A DNA stretch of 64,000 nt, from contig JAZSNL010000016.1 in NCBI GenBank assembly GCA_045536365.1, positions 46,003-110,002 on the forward strand, read 5' to 3'. This stretch comes from Bacilli bacterium. GTDB taxonomy: Bacteria > Bacillota_I > Bacilli_A > ML615J-28 > CAG-313. Positions 23,543-40,315 of the stretch are shown in pieces (the stretch's first letter is position 1; each line of letters starts with the position of its first letter). A program made the translations under genes and the position numbers. The notes below the pieces were generated by a model. That model was not told where the DNA came from and did not search any database. It saw nothing but the letters and a program-made list of their open reading frames with translations.

Positions 23543-23618
23543 TGGTAGGGCTAAATGGATTCGAACCATTGAAATGACGGAGTCAAAGTCCGTTGCCTTA
23601 CCGCTTGGCTATAGCCCT
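23543..23618 (-). tRNA. tRNA-Gln (anticodon UUG), 76 nt with encoded CCA
   Basis: Reverse complement reads AGGGCUAUAGCCAAGCGGUAAGGCAACGGACUUUGACUCCGUCAUUUCAAUGGUUCGAAUCCAUUUAGCCCUACCA. It folds as a cloverleaf with anticodon loop CUUUGAC, T-loop TTCGAAT and a 7-bp acceptor stem, and is almost identical to B. subtilis tRNA-Gln. Confidence 0.9.
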
Positions 23619-23625
23619 ATAAAGA

Positions 23626-23710
23626 TGGTGGAAGGGGACGGATTCGAACCATCGAACTCGGAGAGAGCGGATTTACAGTCCGCCGCGTTTAGCCACTTCG
23701 CTACCCTTCC
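23626..23710 (-). tRNA. tRNA-Tyr (anticodon GUA), 85 nt with long variable arm and encoded CCA
   Basis: Reverse complement reads GGAAGGGUAGCGAAGUGGCUAAACGCGGCGGACUGUAAAUCCGCUCUCUCCGAGUUCGAUGGUUCGAAUCCGUCCCCUUCCACCA. The anticodon loop is CUGUAAA and it is near-identical to Bacillus tRNA-Tyr. Confidence 0.9.
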
Positions 23711-29001: not shown

Positions 29002-29541
29002 ATGAATGTTTATGAAGATTATAAAAGTTATATGAATGAATATGCATCTTTATTAAAAAAATTTAATGATGCTAATTCAAAAATATTAATATGTGTATCT
29101 GATGTTATTAAAGTAACTGATTATATTTATCAAAAATTTAATAATAATGAAACTATTACTGAAGAAGAAAAAGAAATATTTGACATAGGATATGGATATT
29201 TAAGTAATGTTTTAAGTGATATTAAAACTTTTTATTATGATTATTTCGATAAAGACTTAGAAGAATTTGAAAAAAGAGTTGATTTAATTATCCTTGCAAT
29301 ATATGTAGATGATTATGTATGTTATTTAGAAAATAATGATTATATGAATGATGAATTAAAAGAAGAGTTAAAAAATATTGCTTATAAACTAGATAATATG
29401 CTTGCAAGTAAATCTCAAGTTGATGAAAAAACTGTTAAAAATATTGAAGCTCACGTATTAAGCTTATCTAGTTATCATAGTAGTTTTAGACCTGTTTATT
29501 TAATTTTCTCTATGATGATTGAAGAATTAGTAATATATTAA
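29002..29541 (+). CDS. Hypothetical acidic protein (179 aa)
   Basis: ORF with an AAAGAGGT RBS and no recognisable domain. Confidence 0.45.
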   Translation: MNVYEDYKSYMNEYASLLKKFNDANSKILICVSDVIKVTDYIYQKFNNNETITEEEKEIFDIGYGYLSNVLSDIKTFYYDYFDKDLEEFEKRVDLIILAIYVDDYVCYLENNDYMNDELKEELKNIAYKLDNMLASKSQVDEKTVKNIEAHVLSLSSYHSSFRPVYLIFSMMIEELVIY

Positions 29542-29542
29542 A

Positions 29543-29569
29543 AAAGAAGCATTTTATAAATGCTTCTTT
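29543..29569. terminator. Bidirectional terminator hairpin that overlaps the maf stop codon
   Basis: aaagaagcattt / aaatgcttcttt inverted repeat followed by atttttg. Confidence 0.5.
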
Positions 29570-30108
29570 ATTTTTGTATATAGCTCACATATAGGAAGTC
29601 CCATTACATTATAATAATCACCATCTATTTTTTCTATATAACGACAAGACATTCCTTGTATTGCATAAGCACCTGCTTTATCATAAACATTTTCAAGTGT
29701 TATGTATTCTAATATATTTTCTTTTGTCAATTCTTTAAATGTAACATATGTTTCTACTGCAAATACTTCTTTTTCTTTTTTTGAATATATTGCAACACCT
29801 GTAATTACTTGATGAGTTCTATTTGATAAAGTTGATAACATTTCTATTGCTTCTTCTTTGTTTCTAGGCTTCCCTAATATTTTGTTATCTATTACTACAA
29901 TTGTATCTGCTCCTATAACAATATCATCTTGATGATTCTTATATATATCTAATGCTTTTTGAATTGCAAGGGATTGAACAGTTTCAGATGGAGTTAATGT
30001 AGGATCAATAGTTTCCTCACATGATGAAGGAATTACTTTATGTTCAATATGTGCAAGTGATAGAATTTCTGTTCTTCTTGGTGATGCTGATGCAAGGATA
30101 ATAGCCAT
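29554..30108 (-). CDS. maf: Maf-like nucleoside triphosphate pyrophosphatase
   Basis: MAIILASASPRRTEIL and the GADT motif of the Maf family; 184 aa. Confidence 0.85.
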   Translation of the reverse strand: MAIILASASPRRTEILSLAHIEHKVIPSSCEETIDPTLTPSETVQSLAIQKALDIYKNHQDDIVIGADTIVVIDNKILGKPRNKEEAIEMLSTLSNRTHQVITGVAIYSKKEKEVFAVETYVTFKELTKENILEYITLENVYDKAGAYAIQGMSCRYIEKIDGDYYNVMGLPICELYTKIKKHL

Positions 30109-30190
30109 AGTTAGTACCTCTCTTTTATATTATTATACTATAATTTAATCTTTTTTTCAGTAAAATAAAAAACATTCTTTCGAATGTTTT

Positions 30191-30919
30191 TTATATTCTT
30201 TTTAAAAATTCCTTTGTTCTTTCGTATTTAGCATTATTAAATATTTGATCTGGAGTTCCTTTTTCTAAAACTACACCTTGATCCATAAAAATTATTTCAT
30301 TTGCTGCTTCTTTTGCAAAAGTCATTTCATGTGTAACAATTATCATTGTCATACCAGACTTTGCAAGTTCTTTCATTACTTCTAATACTTCTCCGACCAT
30401 TTCTGGATCAAGAGCAGAAGTAGGTTCATCAAATAAGATAACTTCTGGATTCATTGTTAATGCTCTTGCGATAGCTACACGTTGTTTTTGACCACCTGAT
30501 AGGCTTCTTGTATCTGCATGAATAAAGTCTTGCATTCCTACTTGACATAAGTATTTTTCAGCAATTTCTCTTGCTTCTTGTTTTGGTCTTTTTAATACTT
30601 TCGTTTGTGCAATCATGCAGTTTTCAATTACATTCATATTTTCAAATAAATTGAATGATTGAAATACCATACCGATGTTTTGACGTATATTATCTATATT
30701 AACTGATTTATCGTTTATATTTATTCCTTTAAAATAAATTTCACCACTAGTTGGTTGTTCTAATAAATTAATACATCTTAATAATGTTGATTTACCACTG
30801 CCAGATGATCCGATGATTGCGGTAACAGATCCTTTATAGATATCTAGATTTACACCTTTTAATACTTCTAAAGAATCAAAGTTTTTATATAGATTTTTTA
30901 TTTCAATTATTTTTTCCAT
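30191..30919 (-). CDS. Polar amino acid ABC transporter ATP-binding protein
   Basis: Walker [10 protein letters not shown], signature [15 protein letters not shown] and Walker [12 protein letters not shown]; GlnQ/HisP-like. Confidence 0.9.
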
Positions 30920-30927
30920 ATTATCAC

Positions 30928-32025
30928 CTAATTAGAACTTGGTAATGGTTTTGAAACAAGGTTCATACGTTTTTCTAATAAACCAAGTAGTTTTGATATA
31001 CCTAAAGTTAAGCATAAATAAATTATTGCTGCGATAAAATAAGCATCTCCTGTTCCACCTTTACCATTTATCATACCTACTACATAGAATAAGTCGATTA
31101 CTGATACTACATTTAATACAGATGTATCTTTTATATTAATAATAAATTCATTACAAATAGCAGGTAAAGAATTTTTAATTCCTTGAGGTAAAATAACATG
31201 AGTCATTGCTTGAGTTCTTGTCATACCTAAACTTCTAGCCGCTTCCATTTGTCCTTTATTTAAAGATTCAATACCGCCTCGTAATACTTCTACTAAGTAT
31301 GCGGTAGTATTTAGACTTACTGTTATTAAACCTACTCTTGTTGCGGATAAGATTTCATTAACTGTTTGTTGATTTACTCCAAAGAAATTTACTATTATAA
31401 GAGGTAAAAAGTAATAAATTATTATTGCTTGTACCATCATTGGTGTACCTCTAAAAATAGTTACATATATTTTTACAAATCCTATCGCTATTTTTTTAAG
31501 GAATGCGGTAAATTCATTATCTTTTGGAGTAATTTCTTGTGTTCTAAATACTATAAACATTAAAGCAAGAATTAACCCAATTGCTGTACCAGCTAAACTT
31601 ATCCATATTGTTGTCCAAACACCCATTAATATCATTGGGTATTTATTTATACATATATATGCTAGTCTATAATGCAATGCTAATGCACTAATTTCTTCTA
31701 ATGTTGAATTTGCTGCAATTATAAATGTTCTTACTATTCCTAGTATTAAACAATCAATTACGACTAAAAGAAATATTACTATTGTTATTAAATATAGAAT
31801 TCTTTTAATTTTTTGATTTTTAAACACACATAAAATTAATATTTCTGCTATTAATAGAAGAATAGAAACTATTGTTAATATTAATCCAAGTGTGTTATTA
31901 AATATTCTAATTCCTCGAAGTGATGTATTAAAATAGATATATAATCCATATATACTAGTTATTAAAGTAAATAGTATATATAAACAATTTTCATATTTTC
32001 CTTTTTTATTAAAAAAATTAATCAT
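30928..32025 (-). CDS. Amino acid ABC transporter permease (HisM/GlnP family) with an extra ~130-aa N-terminal hydrophobic extension
   Basis: The C-terminal ~220 aa show the permease EAA-loop region ([21 protein letters not shown]). The N-terminal extension is made of TM segments. Confidence 0.8.
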
Positions 32026-32837
32026 TATTCAGCGTTTTTAGCGATAGCTTGATCCATTAGTTGCATTCTTTCTTCTTCTGAAATAGAGGCTAGAACTTGA
32101 CTAATTTTTTCATTTAGTTCGCTTTCTCCTTTTCTTATTGCAATTGCAACACTAACATCTTCTTCTGATACATTAAATCCAGATTCTAATTTAATATATG
32201 TTAATTTAGGATTTGTTTTAATGATTCCTTTTGCAACTGGTTCTTCTAAAATTGTAATATCTGCTCTTTTTGTTGAAATAGCTGTAATAATTGTAGTAAC
32301 ATCTGCAAGTGGTGTTAAATGGTTAACTCCTTCTAATTGATCAATTAAACTATCATATAAAGTTTCAATTTGACCTACTACATTTGCGCCTTCAAAATCA
32401 CTTAGTGTTTTACCATTAATATACTTTGAATCTTTTTCCATCACTAAAACGTGTGTAGAACGATAATATGGAGCAGTAAAATCAACACTTGCTCTTCTTT
32501 CTTCTGTATTACTCATACCTGCTATAATTGCATCAATTTTACCTGTTGATAATGCTGTTATTAATCCATCCCATTCAATTGCTTTAATAACTAGTCTATA
32601 TCCTAATTGATCAGCTATCTTTTTTGCTATTTGTACATCATATCCTTCTGCATATAATTTAGTTCCATCAATAGGATAGTTAGTATCTGTTTGAAACATT
32701 TCAGTCCAGTTAAATGGAGCATACGCACATTCCATACCTACTGTAAATGTTGGACGGTTATCTGGTTCTGGTTCCTTACAACTTGCTATGCTTAGTGTTG
32801 TTAATAAAATTGCGATTGTTAAAATTATTTTTTTCAT
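32025..32837 (-). CDS. Amino acid ABC transporter substrate-binding lipoprotein
   Basis: Track start 32873. The preferred start is MKKIILTIAILLTTLSIASC at 32837 with an AAGGAG RBS and a lipobox. Family 3 SBP fold motifs are present. Confidence 0.85.
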   Translation of the reverse strand: MKKIILTIAILLTTLSIASCKEPEPDNRPTFTVGMECAYAPFNWTEMFQTDTNYPIDGTKLYAEGYDVQIAKKIADQLGYRLVIKAIEWDGLITALSTGKIDAIIAGMSNTEERRASVDFTAPYYRSTHVLVMEKDSKYINGKTLSDFEGANVVGQIETLYDSLIDQLEGVNHLTPLADVTTIITAISTKRADITILEEPVAKGIIKTNPKLTYIKLESGFNVSEEDVSVAIAIRKGESELNEKISQVLASISEEERMQLMDQAIAKNAE

Positions 32838-32861
32838 ATTTTTCTCCTTTTCTAAAATGAA

Positions 32862-32887
32862 AAAAAGCGTCATTATGACGCTTTTTT
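32862..32887 (-). terminator. Attenuator/terminator hairpin immediately upstream of the ABC transporter RBS
   Basis: aaaaaagcgtca...tgacgctttttt inverted repeat with T-runs. It sits between a ~190-nt leader and the RBS at 32843-32849. Confidence 0.55.
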
Positions 32888-33074
32888 ATTACATATTAAT
32901 AATTACAGCGCCTCTACAAAATTCTGTAGGAGTGTTATAGGTATTTCCTATAACCCCACCAAATAATTATGCCTAATTATTCAGTTCGGCGATGGTTGCC
33001 TTTCAATACTTTCTTCGTATGCCTACTCCAGTATTTACTTTTCTGCATCGCTACCTCTATATATTTATTTTTAC
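32888..33074 (-). promoter_or_regulatory. About 190-nt structured 5' leader of the amino-acid ABC operon. It is a candidate riboswitch, possibly lysine (L-box) type, but the class is unconfirmed.
   Basis: The minus-strand leader carries AGAGGUAGCG, GGAGUAGGCAUACGAAG and CAUCGCCGAAC motifs in the same order as L-box GAGGCGC...GGAG...UCGCCGAAG. It also has an 8-bp hairpin (guuauagg / ccuauaac) and the terminator above. Its own promoter lies upstream. Confidence 0.3.
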
Positions 33075-33080
33075 GTTATT

Positions 33081-33109
33081 ATTATACCATTAATTAGAAT
33101 ATTTTTAAA
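33081..33109 (-). promoter_or_regulatory. Candidate promoter for the leader and ABC operon: TTTAAA, 17 nt spacer, TGGTATAAT (extended -10)
   Basis: Minus strand reads tggtataat (the -10 is the complement of 33081-33086, with the TG extension). A weak -35 tttaaa lies at 33104-33109. Confidence 0.35.
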
Positions 33110-33128
33110 CTAATATGCTCTATAATTT

Positions 33129-33386
33129 CTAATTTCTATCAGTTTCACTTACAAGTTCATACATAAGAGGAGCATCTACTTTTTTAGTAGAATCAATTAA
33201 TGATACAACCCTTACTACTATTGTTTTTTTACCATAATTAATTGTTATAACATCTCCAACTTTTACTTCTTTAGATGGTTTTGCTACAACACCATTTACT
33301 AAAACATGTTCTGCTGAACTTGCTTCTTTTGCAAGAGTTCTTCTTTTAATTAATCTTGAAACTTTTAAATATTTATCAAGACGCAT
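33129..33386 (-). CDS. yabO: S4-domain RNA-binding protein (YabO/Hsp15-like)
   Basis: The 85-aa protein [21 protein letters not shown] has an S4 fold signature. Its position downstream of ftsH matches Bacillus. Confidence 0.75.
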   Translation of the reverse strand: MRLDKYLKVSRLIKRRTLAKEASSAEHVLVNGVVAKPSKEVKVGDVITINYGKKTIVVRVVSLIDSTKKVDAPLMYELVSETDRN

Positions 33387-35446
33387 TATTCTTCCTCTTT
33401 TGGTTCTTCAATAACTTCTTCAGTTTCTTCTTTTGATTCTTCAATAACTTGGTCAGCTTTTTCTTCTTCAGTGTAATATACTACATCTGGTTCTTCAGGG
33501 GCTTCTGCTGCTTTTTGAGCTTCTTCAGCCATCTTAGCTTTTTTCTTTTCCCACCAAGTTAGTTGGCCAGTATTAACTAATTCATCAATATCTTCTTTAG
33601 TTAATGTTTCGATTTCAACTAGATGTTGAGCAATTAAGTCTAATAATTTACGATTTTCAATTAATGTTTCTTTACCTAATTCATAACATTCATTGATAAT
33701 CTTTCTAACTTCTTGGTCAATTTCTAAGGCAACTTGATCTGAGAAGTTCTTATCTTTCATATAATCTCTGCCTAGGAATACATTACCTCTATCTGTTTCA
33801 TATTGAATAGGACCTAATGAACTCATACCATATTCAGTAACCATTGATCTTGCAATAGCAGTAGCTCTACGAAAATCATCATAAGCTCCCGTTGTCATTT
33901 GATTAAATACTACTTCTTCAGCAATTCTACCAGCTAAATAACTTGTAATCATTGCCATTAATTCTTGTTTAGTATTTGTAAATGTTTCTTGTTCAGGAAC
34001 TAATAAATTATATCCTCCTGCTGTACCACGAGGTATAATAGTAACCTTTTGAACACGTGCTGCGTGTTTTAATTTGATACCTATTACAGCATGACCAGCT
34101 TCATGGTATGCAGTTAAAGCTTTTTCTGTTTCTGTATATTTCTTAGATTTCTTTGCAGGACCCATAATTACACGGTCAATTGCTTCAGAAATATGATAAA
34201 TTTTAATTTCACGACAATTTTCTCTTGCTGCAAGTAATGCTGCTTCATTAAGTAAATTTTCTAAATCTGCACCACTAAATCCTGGAGTTTGTTTTGCAAT
34301 TTCACCGAAATTAACTCTTGGTGAAATACGTTTATTTCTTGCATGAACTTTTAATATTTCTTCTCTTGCTTTAACATCAGGTAAACCAATTGTGATTTGT
34401 CTATCGAAACGACCAGGTCTTAATAAAGCAGGGTCTAAGATATCTGCTCTATTAGTTGCAGCCATAACAATAATACCGCTGTTACCTGCAAATCCATCCA
34501 TTTCAACTAGTAATTGATTTAGTGTTTGTTCTCTTTCATCATGTCCACCACCAAGACCAGCGCCTCTTTGACGACCTACTGCGTCAATTTCATCAATGAA
34601 AATGATACAAGGAGCATTTTGTTTAGCGATTTTAAACATATCTCTAACACGGCTCGCACCAACACCAACAAACATTTCAACAAAGTCTGAACCTGAAATA
34701 GTGTAGAATGGAACATTTGCTTCACCCGCAACAGCTCTCGCAAGTAAAGTTTTACCTGTACCAGGTCTACCTACTAATAAAATACCTTTTGGAATTCTAG
34801 CTCCCATATCAAAATATTTTTTAGGGCTCTTTAAGAAGTCAACGATTTCCACCATTTCTTCTTTTTCTTCATCTAATCCTGCTACATCTTTGAAAGTAAC
34901 ACCAGATTTTCTTGATACTCTTGCTCTGCTCTTACCAAAATCAAATGCTTGATTATTTCCTTTATTAGCTTTCATAACTGATGATACTACAAATATTGCA
35001 ATACCAATCATTACAATAATACTTAAAAGTGATAACCATGGGAATGAAGTTGGAATTGCAAGTTCAACAATTTTGAATCCTGCTCCTTCAACCTTTGATA
35101 ATTCACTTATCATTTGATATGTTTCCCAAGTAACTAATGAAGTAAATGTTGAATATCCACCTACCGCATTTTTAAATTCTTCTTTAAAAGTACCTGTTAC
35201 TTTAATCAATTCATTATGATTTGTTGTTTCAAAATATATTTCATTAATAACTATTGGATCTGATAAAACAATTTTACCATTAACATCATATGTATAAATG
35301 TATTGTTCAAATTGTGCTTGAGTTAATTCTTTGTTTTTCTTTGCTCCTGCTAAAGCATATACTACCATTGAAATCGCAATTGCAGCTAAAACAAAGATAA
35401 CAATTAAATTACCAGGTCCTAATTTTCTTCTTTTAATCTCTGACAT
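33386..35446 (-). CDS. ftsH: ATP-dependent zinc metalloprotease FtsH
   Basis: AAA Walker A GPPGTGKT-like (GRPGTGKT), SRH region and HEAGHA zinc motif; 686 aa. Confidence 0.95.
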
Positions 35447-35464: not shown

Positions 35465-36733
35465 CTAATGTTTTATAACATATCCTAAAATTGCAGTAAC
35501 TATATCATTTTCACATAATAATAGAATATTTCTTCTTTCTAAGGAAGGAACTTTTTTATTTGTTAAGTAATCACTTACTGATATAGTACCGACTTTAGTC
35601 TTTATTTTATCACCGTTTTTTCTTGTTCGTATAATAATCGGTAAACCTTTTATATTATACCATAAATTACCTTTATTTGTATTAAAATAACAACAATTTT
35701 TATCGACTATTAACTTATTATTATCTAATAAATCATAAGTTCCTGCTTCAGTTATTTCTAAATAAAAATTTTTTTCGGAAATATCAAAATTAACAAATTG
35801 AATATATCCATATTCTTTAATCATTGTTAATTCTAAATTAATTTTAGATATGATTTTATTTTTATCACTTTTAATTTGTTTAATAATATCATCAATACAG
35901 GTTTTAGATAAATTAAATTTTCTTAAAATTCTAAATAAAATTTGAACTTGTAAATATTCAGTTAATTTTAAATATTCATCTATTTTAAATTGAATTAATA
36001 TTTCATTATTATTATTTTTTACTAAAACATGGTTTTTTATAAAGGAAACTTTTTCTTTTTCTAATAATTCATTTGCAGATAAAATTGTTTTATTATAATA
36101 ACTTATTGCTTCATATAAATTAGGGTTTTCTTCTAATAAGATTGGTGTTATATATTTTCTTATACGATTTCTTGTATAATCATCTGAATAATTAGAATCA
36201 TCTTGATAATAGAAAATATTATTTTTTACCGCATATTCCATTATTTCTTTTTTTGAATTTTCTAATAAAGGTCTAAAAATATAATAATTTTCTTTTTTAG
36301 TTAACTCTTCAATACCTGCATATCCTTTTAATGAAGATGATTTTAACAATCTCATTATAATAGTTTCTAAATTATCATCCGCATGATGAGCAGTGATTAA
36401 ATAATCTGCGTTTTCTTTCTCCATAATTTCATCAAAAAATTGATATCTTTGATCTCTTGCCCATTCTTGAAAATTACTTTCTTCATAATGTGGAAGAACT
36501 TTAACGTAACATTTTAATCCTTTTTCTAAACAATATTTTTTAATATATTCTTCTTCTAAAGTAGATTGAGTTCTTTTTTGATGATTAATGTGGGAAATAA
36601 TTATTTTACTATTTTTTGTATAGTTTAATAGTAAATTTAATAATACCATTGAATCAATGCCTGTTGAACACGCAAGAACAATAGTTTTATTATTTAGTTG
36701 TTCTTTAATTTTGTCAATTGCTTTTTTCAACAT
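35465..36733 (-). CDS. tilS: tRNA(Ile)-lysidine synthetase
   Basis: PP-loop motif ACSTGIDSMVL (an SGGxDS variant); conserved position upstream of ftsH. Confidence 0.85.
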   Translation of the reverse strand: MLKKAIDKIKEQLNNKTIVLACSTGIDSMVLLNLLLNYTKNSKIIISHINHQKRTQSTLEEEYIKKYCLEKGLKCYVKVLPHYEESNFQEWARDQRYQFFDEIMEKENADYLITAHHADDNLETIIMRLLKSSSLKGYAGIEELTKKENYYIFRPLLENSKKEIMEYAVKNNIFYYQDDSNYSDDYTRNRIRKYITPILLEENPNLYEAISYYNKTILSANELLEKEKVSFIKNHVLVKNNNNEILIQFKIDEYLKLTEYLQVQILFRILRKFNLSKTCIDDIIKQIKSDKNKIISKINLELTMIKEYGYIQFVNFDISEKNFYLEITEAGTYDLLDNNKLIVDKNCCYFNTNKGNLWYNIKGLPIIIRTRKNGDKIKTKVGTISVSDYLTNKKVPSLERRNILLLCENDIVTAILGYVIKH

Positions 36734-36760
36734 ATTATTTATTCCCTTTCATTATTATGT

Positions 36761-36789
36761 ATTATACTATTTTTTTTACTTTTTGTAAA
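36761..36789 (-). promoter_or_regulatory. Promoter for tilS-ftsH-yabO: TTTACA, 17 nt spacer, TATAAT
   Basis: Minus strand reads tttaca, aaaagtaaaaaaaatag, tataat. The -10 is the complement of 36761-36766 and the -35 the complement of 36784-36789. Confidence 0.5.
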
Positions 36790-36831
36790 GGTTTAAGTGA
36801 TATATTTCAGTTTTTTCACACATTAAAATAA

Positions 36832-36854
36832 AAAAGTGTAGAAACTACACTTTT
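36832..36854 (-). terminator. Terminator of the murF-ddl operon
   Basis: aaaagtgtag / ctacactttt stem with a 3-nt loop, followed by a T-run on the minus strand. It abuts the ddl stop codon. Confidence 0.55.
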
Positions 36855-37977
36855 ATTTTTTTAGTTTTTCTCCTTTATTAAAAAGGACATTTGAATTAAA
36901 TGTTTTAATATATTTTAATTTTTGTTTTTGTTCATACAAAGCATTTTTAATTTGTTTATCTATTAATTCAGTAAATGATATTTCATATAAATAATACGCA
37001 AGAGATCCAGGAATTGTGTTTATTTCATTAACGTATATTTTATTATTTAAATTATCATATAAATAATCTATTCTTATAATTCCTTTAAATGATAATGAAC
37101 TATATATTTTTTTAGTATATTCAGATATTTGTTCTTTTAATTCGTTAGAAATATCTGCAGGAATAATTCTAGAACTTTGATTTTGTTGTTTATTTATATA
37201 TTTATCTGTAAAAGTTAATAATTCATTATTTGTTGATACTTCTTCAATTTGTGATATTTGGTATTTGGATATTTCTCTATAAATTGATTGATTAAACTCT
37301 CGATATTGTTCTAAAGCTGGTTCAATTAATAACTTTTCAGAATATTTGAAGGATTCCATTATAAATTGATACGCTTCTTCTAAAGTATGAGCAATTTTAA
37401 TTCCAATGCTGGAGCCCAAATTATAAGGTTTTATAATAATAGGTAATGTTATTTCATCTAATTTTTTTGATAATTGATTGTGATTATATGTATGTTTATT
37501 TAATGTAACATATGGTAGAGTTGGTATTTTTAACGATTCTAAAACGTATTTAGTTACTATTTTGTCTTGAGCAATAGAACTAGACAAGATATCTGATGAT
37601 GTATATGGCACATTTAAGAAATCTAAATATCCTGATAGTGTTCCATCTTCTATATTAGCACCATGAACTGTTGGAATGAATATATCTATGTAGTCTATTT
37701 TTCTTCTTTTAGATATATCTAAATAATATAATAAATGGTTTTCATTGTAAAAGGTTACTACTTTACATTTATTAAAATTTCCTTTTTTATATGTTTCAAG
37801 ATCAAATAATGATTTATGAGTTAATATTTCATTATTTTTAGTAATGTAAAAAGGTATAACTTGATATTTTTCTTTATCTATTTCATGATAAACTTGTAAT
37901 GCGGTGAGAATGGATATATCATGTTCTACACTTTGACCTCCAAAAATAATGCCTACTTTTAGTTTTTCATTTAACAT
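36853..37977 (-). CDS. ddl: D-alanine--D-alanine ligase
   Basis: N-terminal KVGIIFGGQSVEHDISILTA and the ATP-grasp C-terminal region; 374 aa. Confidence 0.85.
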   Translation of the reverse strand: MLNEKLKVGIIFGGQSVEHDISILTALQVYHEIDKEKYQVIPFYITKNNEILTHKSLFDLETYKKGNFNKCKVVTFYNENHLLYYLDISKRRKIDYIDIFIPTVHGANIEDGTLSGYLDFLNVPYTSSDILSSSIAQDKIVTKYVLESLKIPTLPYVTLNKHTYNHNQLSKKLDEITLPIIIKPYNLGSSIGIKIAHTLEEAYQFIMESFKYSEKLLIEPALEQYREFNQSIYREISKYQISQIEEVSTNNELLTFTDKYINKQQNQSSRIIPADISNELKEQISEYTKKIYSSLSFKGIIRIDYLYDNLNNKIYVNEINTIPGSLAYYLYEISFTELIDKQIKNALYEQKQKLKYIKTFNSNVLFNKGEKLKK

Positions 37978-39547
37978 TTTTATTCCTTTCTAAAAAATTA
38001 TCTGGTAAGTCATTTTCTATTAAAATACTCACTTCATAATTTTGATTTAAATGTTTTGATAGGATATGTTGATAAGCTTCTTTAAAGCTTTCATATATAT
38101 ATACATTATTAGTTTTATTTATTTCTTGTAAATAATTATATATATATTTTGATGATTGATTATTTATTAAATATATTTCATCAAATACAAATAATTCTTT
38201 TGAAATGTTTTCATTATATTGTTTTTGTGAAGTATTTAGATCAACAAGTCCTGGTGTGATGATTATTTTATATGTATTCATTTGACTTAATACTTTTATT
38301 GCGTTGGAAAAGCCTTTTATATTTGAATTATAGCTGTCATCAAAAAGATATATATTTTGTTCTTTTGATAATGATAATCGATGAGGAATGGATTCCATAT
38401 TGTAAATAGATTCAGCGAATTCTTCATCTGTTATAAATATATTAAATCTTTCTAAGGCTTTAATTACACCATAAGACAAGAGAATATTATATATATTATG
38501 GTAACCTAATAGTAATGTATCAATGTTTATTTTTTTATTATTATAATTAATATTAAAATTAGTTGTTAATTTATTATTTGTATTATTAAACTTTATATCT
38601 GTTGATGTAATATCTGTTTCCTTATTATCTATTCCTATTTTTATAATATTTTTATTTTTAATATTTCTTTTTTTAATATATTCATTATCATAGTTTAATA
38701 TTGGAATTGCTGAAGAATAATCGACTATTTCGAATTTTGAATTAATGATGTTATTTATATTTTTAAATGTTTCTAGATGTTGTTCTCCTATATCAGTTAT
38801 AACAACAATATCAGGGTTGATTAATTTTGTCATTTCTTTTATTTCATTTGGTCTAAATGCACCCATTTCACAAATAAAAATTTCAATATTATTATTTAAT
38901 TGTTCGTTAATTGTTTTTGTTATTCCTTGTAAAGTATTATAAGATTTAGGTGTTGTGAGGGTAAAGAAATGATCAGATAAAATATTGTTTATAATATTTT
39001 TTGTTGATGTTTTTCCATAACTTCCTGTTACCGCAATTTTTATTAATTTTTTGTTATGTTTTAATTTCTTTTCTGCATTATTTACATAGTATCTTGTTAT
39101 CATTTTTTCTAAAGGTTGATTAATAATATTTGTTATGATAATTAAATATGGTATTAATAATAAGTTTAATGAATAAATGAATAGAGTTATTTTATTATAG
39201 AATAGTGTTGTTATTATTAGAATTGTTGATATTAATAAAATATTTGTAATTATTAATCTTATTATTCTTTTTGTTATTTTTAATTTAATTATAAATTCAT
39301 CTTTAAAATGTAATGATATTATAGAAAATAATATTATTATTAACTGAATATACCAATACTTAATTGTTGTAGATATGATAATAAAATATGAAAGAATTAT
39401 ATATGGTTTAAGATAATAATTTGATAAGTGTTTTAAGAGTTTTTTATTATCATAGTGTTCTTGTTGATATATATTTAGGGTATAATAATATGTTTTCGTT
39501 ATTAAAAGGGTTAAAGATAAATATTTAAGTATTTGAAATATGATCAT
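37967..39547 (-). CDS. murF: UDP-N-acetylmuramoyl-tripeptide--D-alanyl-D-alanine ligase with an atypical hydrophobic N-terminal ~150 aa
   Basis: Mur ligase P-loop IAVTGSYGKTSTKN at about residue 175. It is adjacent to ddl and overlaps it by 11 nt. The N-terminal region is strongly hydrophobic (predicted TM helices) rather than the usual soluble N-domain. Confidence 0.75.
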   Translation of the reverse strand: MIIFQILKYLSLTLLITKTYYYTLNIYQQEHYDNKKLLKHLSNYYLKPYIILSYFIIISTTIKYWYIQLIIILFSIISLHFKDEFIIKLKITKRIIRLIITNILLISTILIITTLFYNKITLFIYSLNLLLIPYLIIITNIINQPLEKMITRYYVNNAEKKLKHNKKLIKIAVTGSYGKTSTKNIINNILSDHFFTLTTPKSYNTLQGITKTINEQLNNNIEIFICEMGAFRPNEIKEMTKLINPDIVVITDIGEQHLETFKNINNIINSKFEIVDYSSAIPILNYDNEYIKKRNIKNKNIIKIGIDNKETDITSTDIKFNNTNNKLTTNFNINYNNKKINIDTLLLGYHNIYNILLSYGVIKALERFNIFITDEEFAESIYNMESIPHRLSLSKEQNIYLFDDSYNSNIKGFSNAIKVLSQMNTYKIIITPGLVDLNTSQKQYNENISKELFVFDEIYLINNQSSKYIYNYLQEINKTNNVYIYESFKEAYQHILSKHLNQNYEVSILIENDLPDNFLERNKNVK

Positions 39548-40315
39548 TTATTCACCTATGAATTCTTTTATATCTTTTATAATTTCTTTTTCTTTATTAA
39601 TATATGAAAAATGGTCTGTTTCATATGCTTTTAAAATACTGTTTTCTATATATTTATACATTTTCACCGCATCTTTATAAGGTGTTATTGTATCATTTAT
39701 TCCCCAAATAATAAGTGTTTTTGTGTTTATTTGTTTTAGGTTTTTTGTTAAATCTTCTTTTACTATTTTAGATAGGGTTTGTTTCATTATAATAGAAGAA
39801 GATTGATAATCTTTACTTCCTGATGTGTTTATTAGTTGATTGTATTTAATGATGTTTTTTGTTAGTTTATAATATTTCTTTTTTATTTTATATTTTAAGG
39901 TCAAAAGAGAGCGTTTTACGGACTTTTTCCTTAATCCAGCACTATTTATTAGGATTAATGATTTAATGTTATTATTTATAGATGCGTATTTAACCGCAAT
40001 TCTTCCACCGAATGAGTGTCCTATTATAATAGGGTTATGAATATTTAAATCACTAATGAATTGATTTAAAAATAACACATAATCATTTAAATCAAATGGA
40101 ATATATGGTTCTGTACTATTTCCAAATCCTATTAAGTCTATTAAATAACATTTATAGTTTAATAATTGATTTGCTATATCATAAAATGTTTCTTTTGACT
40201 GACCCCATCCATGTAGAAATATTATAGGTGGTCCTTCACCTTTTATTTCATAGTTTATATATATATCTTGATAATAATAATCGATAGTATCACCTTCCTT
40301 TAAAATTATATTCAT
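39548..40315 (-). CDS. Alpha/beta hydrolase fold protein (esterase/lipase-like)
   Basis: Nucleophile elbow IIGHSFGG and an HGWGQS oxyanion region; 255 aa. Confidence 0.7.
   Translation of the reverse strand: MNIILKEGDTIDYYYQDIYINYEIKGEGPPIIFLHGWGQSKETFYDIANQLLNYKCYLIDLIGFGNSTEPYIPFDLNDYVLFLNQFISDLNIHNPIIIGHSFGGRIAVKYASINNNIKSLILINSAGLRKKSVKRSLLTLKYKIKKKYYKLTKNIIKYNQLINTSGSKDYQSSSIIMKQTLSKIVKEDLTKNLKQINTKTLIIWGINDTITPYKDAVKMYKYIENSILKAYETDHFSYINKEKEIIKDIKEFIGE

Follow-up and report, generated by a model that had tools for sequence, protein, structure and literature searches.

What controls the three-gene ATP-binding cassette (ABC) transporter operon found in a stretch of 64,000 nucleotides from a Bacilli bacterium (GenBank assembly GCA_045536365.1, contig JAZSNL010000016.1, positions 46,003 to 110,002; the whole stretch is called the window below) is a question raised by the leader that precedes it. 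The leader and all of its features are on the minus strand, flanked by an S4-domain gene (33386-33129, similar to yabO/hslR) and by the first transporter gene. An earlier note on this DNA had proposed an L-box-like attenuating riboswitch in front of an amino-acid ABC transporter, and this proposal was borne out by a match to the Rfam family RF00168 (Lysine) with 95.2 bits over model positions 1-182. We consider it very probable that the leader works as a lysine riboswitch (L box) which, through transcription attenuation, switches off the expression of an amino-acid ABC importer. Published lysine riboswitches already include some in front of lysX-lysY-type ABC transporters, and the mode of control is known; the finding as such is ordinary.

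RF00168 was the single cis-regulatory match when the whole 64-kb window was compared with Rfam 15 (4227 families). The match extends over 33067-32898 (170 nt), is full length with respect to the model and clearly exceeds the gathering score of 30 (E 6e-24). No T-box or SAM-I motif had been recognized in the earlier note, and in agreement with this neither the T-box (RF00230) nor the SAM-I model matched even at E <= 1 in a search of 601 nt (32700-33300) with permissive filters. Other Rfam families gave in this interval only sub-threshold chance matches on the terminator or the ribosome-binding site (RBS), among them preQ1-II (26 bits vs 47), AgrB and STnc40, and these were rejected. Folding of the leader gave a z-score of -5.8, and none of 200 shuffled sequences folded equally well.

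The aptamer is predicted to form a five-way junction of helices P1-P5, with P1 made of 33061-33057 and 32908-32904. Its core motifs are AGAGG (33058-33054), GAAAGG (33004-32999), UCGCCGAA (32992-32985), UGGGG (32958-32954), ACU (32933-32931) and the J5/1 segment AGGCG (32913-32909). In the Rfam alignment the segments AGAGGUaGCGA, AGUA, GAAAGG, UCGCCGAA, UGGGG, the L4 loop AAAUA and ...GCGCU all fall on matching consensus elements. The three motifs on which the earlier note had based its lysine reading, AGAGGUAGCG (33058-33049), GGAGUAGG (33029-33022) and CAUCGCCGAAC (32994-32984), are all present, and the first and third align with the conserved AGAGGuGCG and UCGCCGAA of RF00168; the GGAG of the second belongs to the P2/L2 region and not to the core. 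A further core element at the 3' side, GAGGCGCU (32915-32908), is present and had not been listed. The elements of the P2 kink-turn and loop E, AGUA (33039-33036) and GAAAGG, and the L4 pentaloop AAAUA (32946-32942), which serves the P2-L4 contact, were found at the level of sequence, in alignment columns that are invariant or nearly so. The apex of L2 (33026-33017) carries a GGCA tetraloop (33023-33020) closed by GUA/UAC, and the P3 hairpin (32984-32959) ends in a second GGCA tetraloop, L3 (32973-32970), the proposed 2-bp kissing partner of L2.

Lysine is read in the Bacillus subtilis lysC aptamer by G40-C110, G111, A112 and G144-U170 (PMC3384330). The counterpart contact motifs are intact in the window: AGAGG, C32988-G32987-A32986 (in GCCGAA), UGG at 32958-32956 and U32931 of ACU. 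As a matter of sequence conservation only, the ligand-contact motifs are invariant in an alignment of eight sequences (see below) and match the Rfam consensus. Lysine is thus the predicted ligand, by homology and by conservation of the nucleotides known to contact it.

To collect relatives of the locus, the binding protein encoded by the first gene of the operon was searched against a set of genomes in which each species was represented once. Eight loci (L007-L014) were obtained: two from metagenome-assembled genomes (MAGs) labelled Staphylococcaceae (identity 76-78%), three from Erysipelothrix genomes, and one each from an Acholeplasmatales MAG, Clostridium sp. CAG:568 and a Clostridiales MAG. 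RF00168 was located directly upstream in seven of the eight, with 64-100 bits; L014 was the sole locus with no RF00168 match. An absence from three of the eight loci turned out to be a filter artefact, since a smaller search recovered, with 69.3 bits, the matches at L011 (2674-2847) and L012 (2743-2916) that gathering-mode cmscan of ten loci had missed. Absences from large batched cmscan runs merit rechecking.

Covariation was assessed in an eight-sequence alignment. Standard pairs occupied 92% of the alignment cells (70% in shuffles), and double, compensatory changes were found in 31 of the 47 aptamer pairs, at least one such pair being present in each of the seven helices counted. The covariation score was 0.606 against 0.195 for shuffles, of which none in 500 scored as high, and slid controls did not exceed 0.14. 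Ten of the 12 pairs of P3 covaried. The L2 tetraloop GGCA was invariant in all eight sequences, and its three closing pairs all covaried while remaining 100% paired. Single-nucleotide polymorphisms (SNPs) among contigs of the same species were located at unpaired positions or preserved a pair, as with the change of G-U to A-U at 32924.

The arrangement of the operon was conserved as well. An identical ATPase sequence was found on 15 metagenome contigs with the same gene order, and the order binding protein, permease, ATPase was kept in all eight related loci. FtsH, YabO and Maf, by comparison with window positions 29554-35446, had no match in any of the eight relatives, the sequence covered being the binding-protein gene with 3 kb to either side. 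Since the neighbours differ while the riboswitch and the operon persist, these two travel as a unit, which suggests a cassette that moves or inserts independently of the genes around it.

Downstream of the aptamer is an intrinsic terminator at 32887-32855, with the stem AAAAAAGCGUCA/UGACGCUUUUUU (32887-32861), the loop UAA and a 7-U tract extending to 32855. The stem has 12 pairs with a GC core, GCGUCA/UGACGC, and the hairpin has a calculated energy of -12.8 kcal/mol; it corresponds to the T-flanked attenuator hairpin that had been described in front of the RBS. Terminator-like sites numbered two over 1.6 kb of scanned sequence, against an expectation of 0.3. A competing antiterminator can be drawn at 32912-32877, as a helix of GGCGCU (32912-32907) and AGCGUC (32882-32877) with a hairpin of 6 bp (32902-32897 and 32891-32886) inside it. 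GGCGCU consists of the last four bases of J5/1 and the first two of the 3' strand of P1, and AGCGUC belongs to the 5' arm of the terminator. Because the antiterminator uses both of these segments, it excludes P1 and the terminator alike.

The relative stability of the two folds depended on the length of the transcript. In a transcript ending after the 5' arm and loop of the terminator, the antiterminator fold was ahead of the P1 fold by 4.7 kcal/mol (-48.8 vs -44.1), and in the complete transcript the combination of P1 and terminator was ahead of the antiterminator by 3.8 kcal/mol (-57.3 vs -53.5). The minimum free energy (MFE) structure of the full leader contained the antiterminator; the centroid showed P1 and the terminator instead. 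The 3' tail folded alone at equilibrium always preferred the terminator. As evidence against the antiterminator this last result was overturned by the transcripts truncated before the 3' arm of the terminator. The calculated energies match the layout expected of a kinetically controlled OFF switch. Two checks suggested in the earlier note, a comparison with Rfam and a search by folding for an alternative partner of the terminator's 5' arm, favour a riboswitch, with an antiterminator that is mutually exclusive with the terminator. Terminator and antiterminator sequences in L007, L009, L010 and L013 differ from those of the window, and their antiterminators likewise join the 3' strand of P1, the adjacent J5/1, or both, to the 5' arm or loop of the terminator, with energies between -7 and -14 kcal/mol in transcripts that stop short of the terminator's 3' arm. 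A like pairing was read by eye in the sequence of the L008 platform.

A mechanism of the following kind is proposed. Transcription would start about 7 nt 5' of the aptamer, from an extended -10 promoter dedicated to the leader, and the 170-nt aptamer would fold into its five-way junction. At high intracellular lysine, the bound ligand would lock J5/1 and P1; with these locked GGCGCU is sequestered, so that the terminator (32887-32861 and the U tract) would form and RNA polymerase would halt about 20 nt before the start codon. The ligand-stabilised P1 and J5/1 would withhold GGCGCU from the terminator arm during a brief decision period. At low lysine, P1 would not be stabilised, and GGCGCU would pair with AGCGUC, together with a small hairpin resembling P6 of B. 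subtilis lysC. This pairing would block the terminator, and the three-gene operon for the binding lipoprotein, the permease and the ATPase would be transcribed, raising lysine uptake.

When the antiterminator is formed, the U tract set free (32867-32859) is also paired, in the MFE structure of the full leader, to the region of the RBS (32852-32844). Such a pairing could speak for a mainly translational control, by occlusion of the RBS or by mRNA decay, for which lysC of Escherichia coli is a precedent. The pairing amounts, however, to only -5.5 kcal/mol, is of a generic kind and would form in the ON state, that is, in the wrong direction. Moreover, the RBS is outside both alternative helices, and a canonical terminator with a 7-U tract separates aptamer and RBS, in the window as well as in the six related loci that were read. 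Control of this type is therefore very improbable, and the contact of the U tract with the RBS region is probably a non-functional match of a U run with a purine run. Transcription attenuation remains the preferred mode.

The promoter assumed above is of the sigma-70 type and is located at 33109-33081. It has the -35 element TTTAAA (33109-33104), a 17-nt spacer and the extended -10 element TGGTATAAT (33089-33081), scoring 10 of 12 matches with the TG extension, and so confirms the dedicated extended -10 promoter of the earlier note. By reading of the sequences, a -35/-10 pair just 5' of the aptamer is found in all seven riboswitch-bearing related loci. Transcription is predicted to start at about 33074 (33076-33073), which gives a leader of about 237 nt up to the ATG and about 188 nt when counted to the terminator; the earlier estimate of about 190 nt agrees with the latter and not with the former.

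Translation of the binding protein is initiated by the RBS AAAGGAG (32850-32844) and the ATG at 32837-32835, the whole signal occupying 32850-32835. From this start the protein has the N-terminus MKKIILTIAILLTTLSIASC, a lipoprotein signal that includes a lipobox, and gene callers picked the same 270-aa start on five of six metagenome contigs of the same species. The longer open reading frame (ORF), with its start at 32873, would begin within the terminator loop. The evidence supports the correction made in the earlier note, placing the start of the gene at 32837 rather than at 32873.

A scan of 1.6 kb found no terminator between the stop codon of yabO (33129) and the leader. The hairpin assigned to the riboswitch could then simply end the upstream ftsH-yabO unit, with the aptamer being a non-functional relic. 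The hairpin, however, is 3' of both the dedicated promoter and the aptamer, and the unit of aptamer, terminator and operon recurs in relatives where ftsH, yabO and maf have no match (3 kb on each side). The strong covariation and the pair-preserving SNPs also indicate selection on the fold. The chance that the aptamer is a relic is accordingly negligible, and we keep to a functional lysine riboswitch.

The operon under the proposed control starts with the gene of a 270-aa substrate-binding lipoprotein (32837-32025) of the SBP_bac_3 family, polar amino-acid type (PF00497, 100.9 bits). It is followed by the genes of a 365-aa ABC permease (32025-30928), with BPD_transp_1 at residues 177-355 and an extra N-terminal segment of about 125 aa, and of a 242-aa ABC ATPase similar to GlnQ/TcyN/HisP (30919-30191), all on the minus strand. 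An SBP_bac_3 binding protein, a BPD_transp_1 permease and an ABC ATPase sharing one operon have the composition of a LysXY-type polar amino-acid importer. In NCBIfam the binding protein matched best to TIGR01096, the lysine/arginine/ornithine subfamily of substrate-binding proteins (SBPs), with 96.8 bits against a cutoff of 256; among solved structures, the closest chains were amino-acid ABC binding proteins of a generic kind (E about 1e-26). Lysine riboswitches in front of lysX-lysY (COG0834) ABC transporters are on record from scattered Firmicutes, Actinobacteria and Fusobacteria and from a phytoplasma (Mukherjee et al. 2017, PMC5584792, and Rodionov et al. 2003 as cited there), and this published pairing is the precedent for taking the substrate from the regulation. 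The transported substrate is probably lysine, by the regulatory association only and not by the protein sequence. For annotation, the results move the binding-protein start from 32873 to 32837 and place the ABC system of three genes in the lysine regulon; they also suggest that a low-GC organism with a small genome adjusts its lysine uptake to intracellular lysine. Conservation of the hydrophobic N-terminal extension of the permease (about 125 aa, 32025-31650) is limited to the closest relatives, L007, L008 and L111; the extension is missing from the Acholeplasmatales, Erysipelothrix and CAG:568 orthologues.

Several points weigh against the interpretation given here. The P1 core is short and AU-rich, with five pairs. 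One highly conserved core position deviates, C32930 replacing the G of ACUG (G141 in Thermotoga maritima), and J5/1 is one nucleotide longer than usual, with 5 nt. The Rfam alignment of P5 is poor, with non-canonical marks and low posterior probability, and the usual L2-L3 complementarity of 5-6 bp is missing. The antiterminator core has just 6 bp, one of them G-U. Without a terminator between yabO and the leader, read-through from ftsH-yabO may feed the switch as well. The binding protein is below every NCBIfam equivalog cutoff, and its specificity is not readable from its sequence. Ligand binding, the start of transcription and its termination are, finally, all predictions from sequence.

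One of the closest known counterparts is the L box of B. subtilis lysC, which belongs to the same Rfam family and has the same five-way junction and conserved ligand-contact nucleotides (PMC3384330). It is also an OFF switch working by attenuation, in which the 3' strand of P1 is shared with an antiterminator competing with an intrinsic terminator. The small hairpin enclosed by the antiterminator of the window (32902-32897/32891-32886) is positioned like P6 of lysC, which there is part of a large antiterminator domain (PMC3082890). In contrast to lysC, the switch of the window controls an importer and not aspartokinase. Its L2 and L3 are GGCA tetraloops with two complementary bases where lysC has a 5-bp kissing helix; it has C for G after ACU in J4/5, one additional nucleotide in J5/1, and a P2 apex shorter by 4 nt. 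With the riboswitch systems of lysX-lysY (COG0834), including that of Onion yellows phytoplasma (PMC5584792), the window shares the regulatory logic and the protein families. It differs from them in coming from an uncultured low-GC (about 27%) bacterium, whose nearest genome matches are MAGs labelled Staphylococcaceae followed by Acholeplasmatales and Erysipelothrix, and in having an operon of three separate genes with a clade-specific N-terminal extension of the permease. The asd riboswitch of T. maritima (PDB 3DIL) has the same motifs in the junction core and the same L4 pentaloop AAAUA for the P2-L4 contact. Its L2 and L3, however, form a 6-bp kissing complex (44-49 with 95-100; PMC3764141), which in the window is reduced to GC with GC, and its G141.A162 pair is part of the quartet G11-G163-G141-A162 (PMC3764141), where the window has C at the position of 141. 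We do not count this second-shell layer among the defining features of the family, highly conserved as it is.

The deviating positions of the window were found to be shared by a wider group. The L2 and L3 arms of the window both end in the identical octamer UAGGCAUA, which yields the stem-closed GGCA tetraloops. A wider sample of 120 metagenome loci was collected by a core pattern, and 55 distinct sequences carrying the AGUA element were kept; this filter was applied since the pattern scan gave many GC-rich chance matches, and the sample is small and selected by pattern. Two forms were distinguished. Type A (38 sequences) reads ACUG-UCAC...GUGG-AGNGCU and mostly has long L2/L3 complementarity. 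Type B (14 metagenome sequences, the window and its seven relatives) reads ACUC-CUNC...GNAG-(A/U)GG(C/A)GCU, having C at the position of T. maritima G141 and one extra nucleotide in J5/1. The window is of type B, with ACUC-CUAC...GUAG-AGGCGCU at 32933-32907. Type B loops, where both are readable, are nearly always GGYR and GRCR tetraloops. Among the 32 sequences with both loops readable as tetraloops, the combination GGCR-GGCR was found 15 times and GGUA-GAC(A/G) three times. The central dinucleotides of the loops remain complementary in the Watson-Crick sense, with C-G exchanged for U-A in all three GGUA cases. Tetraloops in L2 and L3 were listed for the window and for L007-L009, L023, L044, L053, L060, L078, L088, L097, L106, L111, L112, L116 and L123.

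Between the GGCA tetraloops of the window, only a pairing of GC with GC (2 bp) is possible. The conserved complementarity suggests that a tetraloop kiss of two base pairs takes the place of the usual L2-L3 helix of 5-6 bp. The six L2-L3 kissing pairs have been called 'poorly conserved' among lysine riboswitches (PMC3764141). A structural analogy is provided by guanidine-II (mini-ykkC), a riboswitch in which ACGR tetraloops form a dimer (PMC5486947), two stem-closed tetraloops touching through their central two nucleotides. Guanidine-II is an unrelated class in which the loop-loop contact is the ligand site, whereas the contact in the window would be a peripheral scaffold only. The features of type B are the one part of the finding with a wider bearing and, if not previously described, would offer a compact natural test of how much peripheral tertiary structure the aptamer needs.

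The genes downstream of type A, the canonical form, were asd, lysA, lysC, dapA, a LysP-type permease and NhaC, and type A also preceded 10 homologous operons of SBP, permease and ATPase, out of 20 metagenome loci where such an operon has a lysine riboswitch. In the 12 loci assessable for type B, 10 were in front of the ABC operon, one in front of a symporter of the Na:Ala family and one in front of an APC permease; no type B element preceded a biosynthesis gene in these 12. The enrichment of ABC operons for type B had a Fisher p of 0.004, uncorrected for shared ancestry.

These differences could mean that type B, and the window with it, is a look-alike of changed ligand specificity or threshold, whose ligand would be a basic amino acid other than lysine or a derivative of lysine. 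Type B forms a coherent sub-lineage whose members share ACUC for ACUG at J4/5, a J5/1 of 5 nt, and GGCR tetraloops as their L2 and L3; G141 of T. maritima is part of a purine quartet beneath the pocket (PMC3764141), and type B is seen in the sample solely before transporter genes. On the other hand, every nucleotide experimentally shown to read lysine is conserved, and the occurrence of type A before the same transporter family in 10 other loci indicates the same ligand by regulon. The association with transporters may simply arise from a single riboswitch lineage having been inherited together with its operon. The sample is small and pattern-selected. The altered ligand was largely rejected on the grounds of the conserved contacts and of the control of the same transporter family by type A, and we regard it as highly unlikely. 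Since direct ligand contacts are conserved and type A controls the same family, type B is most simply read as a structural variant that would still sense lysine and is co-inherited with transporter operons. A further reading is that the aptamer of the window may represent a structurally distinct type B lineage, dedicated to transporters in the sample and marked by C for the near-invariant G after ACU in J4/5, by the 5-nt J5/1 and by a minimal GGCR-GGCR kiss of two base pairs; in its boldest form, the remodelled second shell would give a lysine threshold or a ligand other than that of the biosynthesis-linked type A. This reading we consider unlikely.

Outside the leader and its operon, a few other features of the window were recorded. 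A stop-free frame of at least 4138 aa (12414-1, minus strand) runs off the start of the window and has a transmembrane-like segment at its N-terminus; it is preceded by an ORF of 1058 aa (15791-12615, minus strand). Neither of the two had a Pfam match at E <= 1e-3. An ORF of 179 aa (29002-29541) lies on the plus strand, opposite to its neighbours, between the genes for Maf and Hsp33; it has no Pfam match on record and is conserved in all five contigs of the same species that reach its position. The region 36001-40000 has a GC content of 21%, vs about 27-30% elsewhere, and a positive GC skew unlike that of neighbouring regions; it contains a D-Ala-D-Ala ligase-like gene and the ORFs beyond it. 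Two adjacent tRNA genes (RF00005) were found on the minus strand at 23546-23618 and 23629-23710, with 66.5 and 60.2 bits, respectively.

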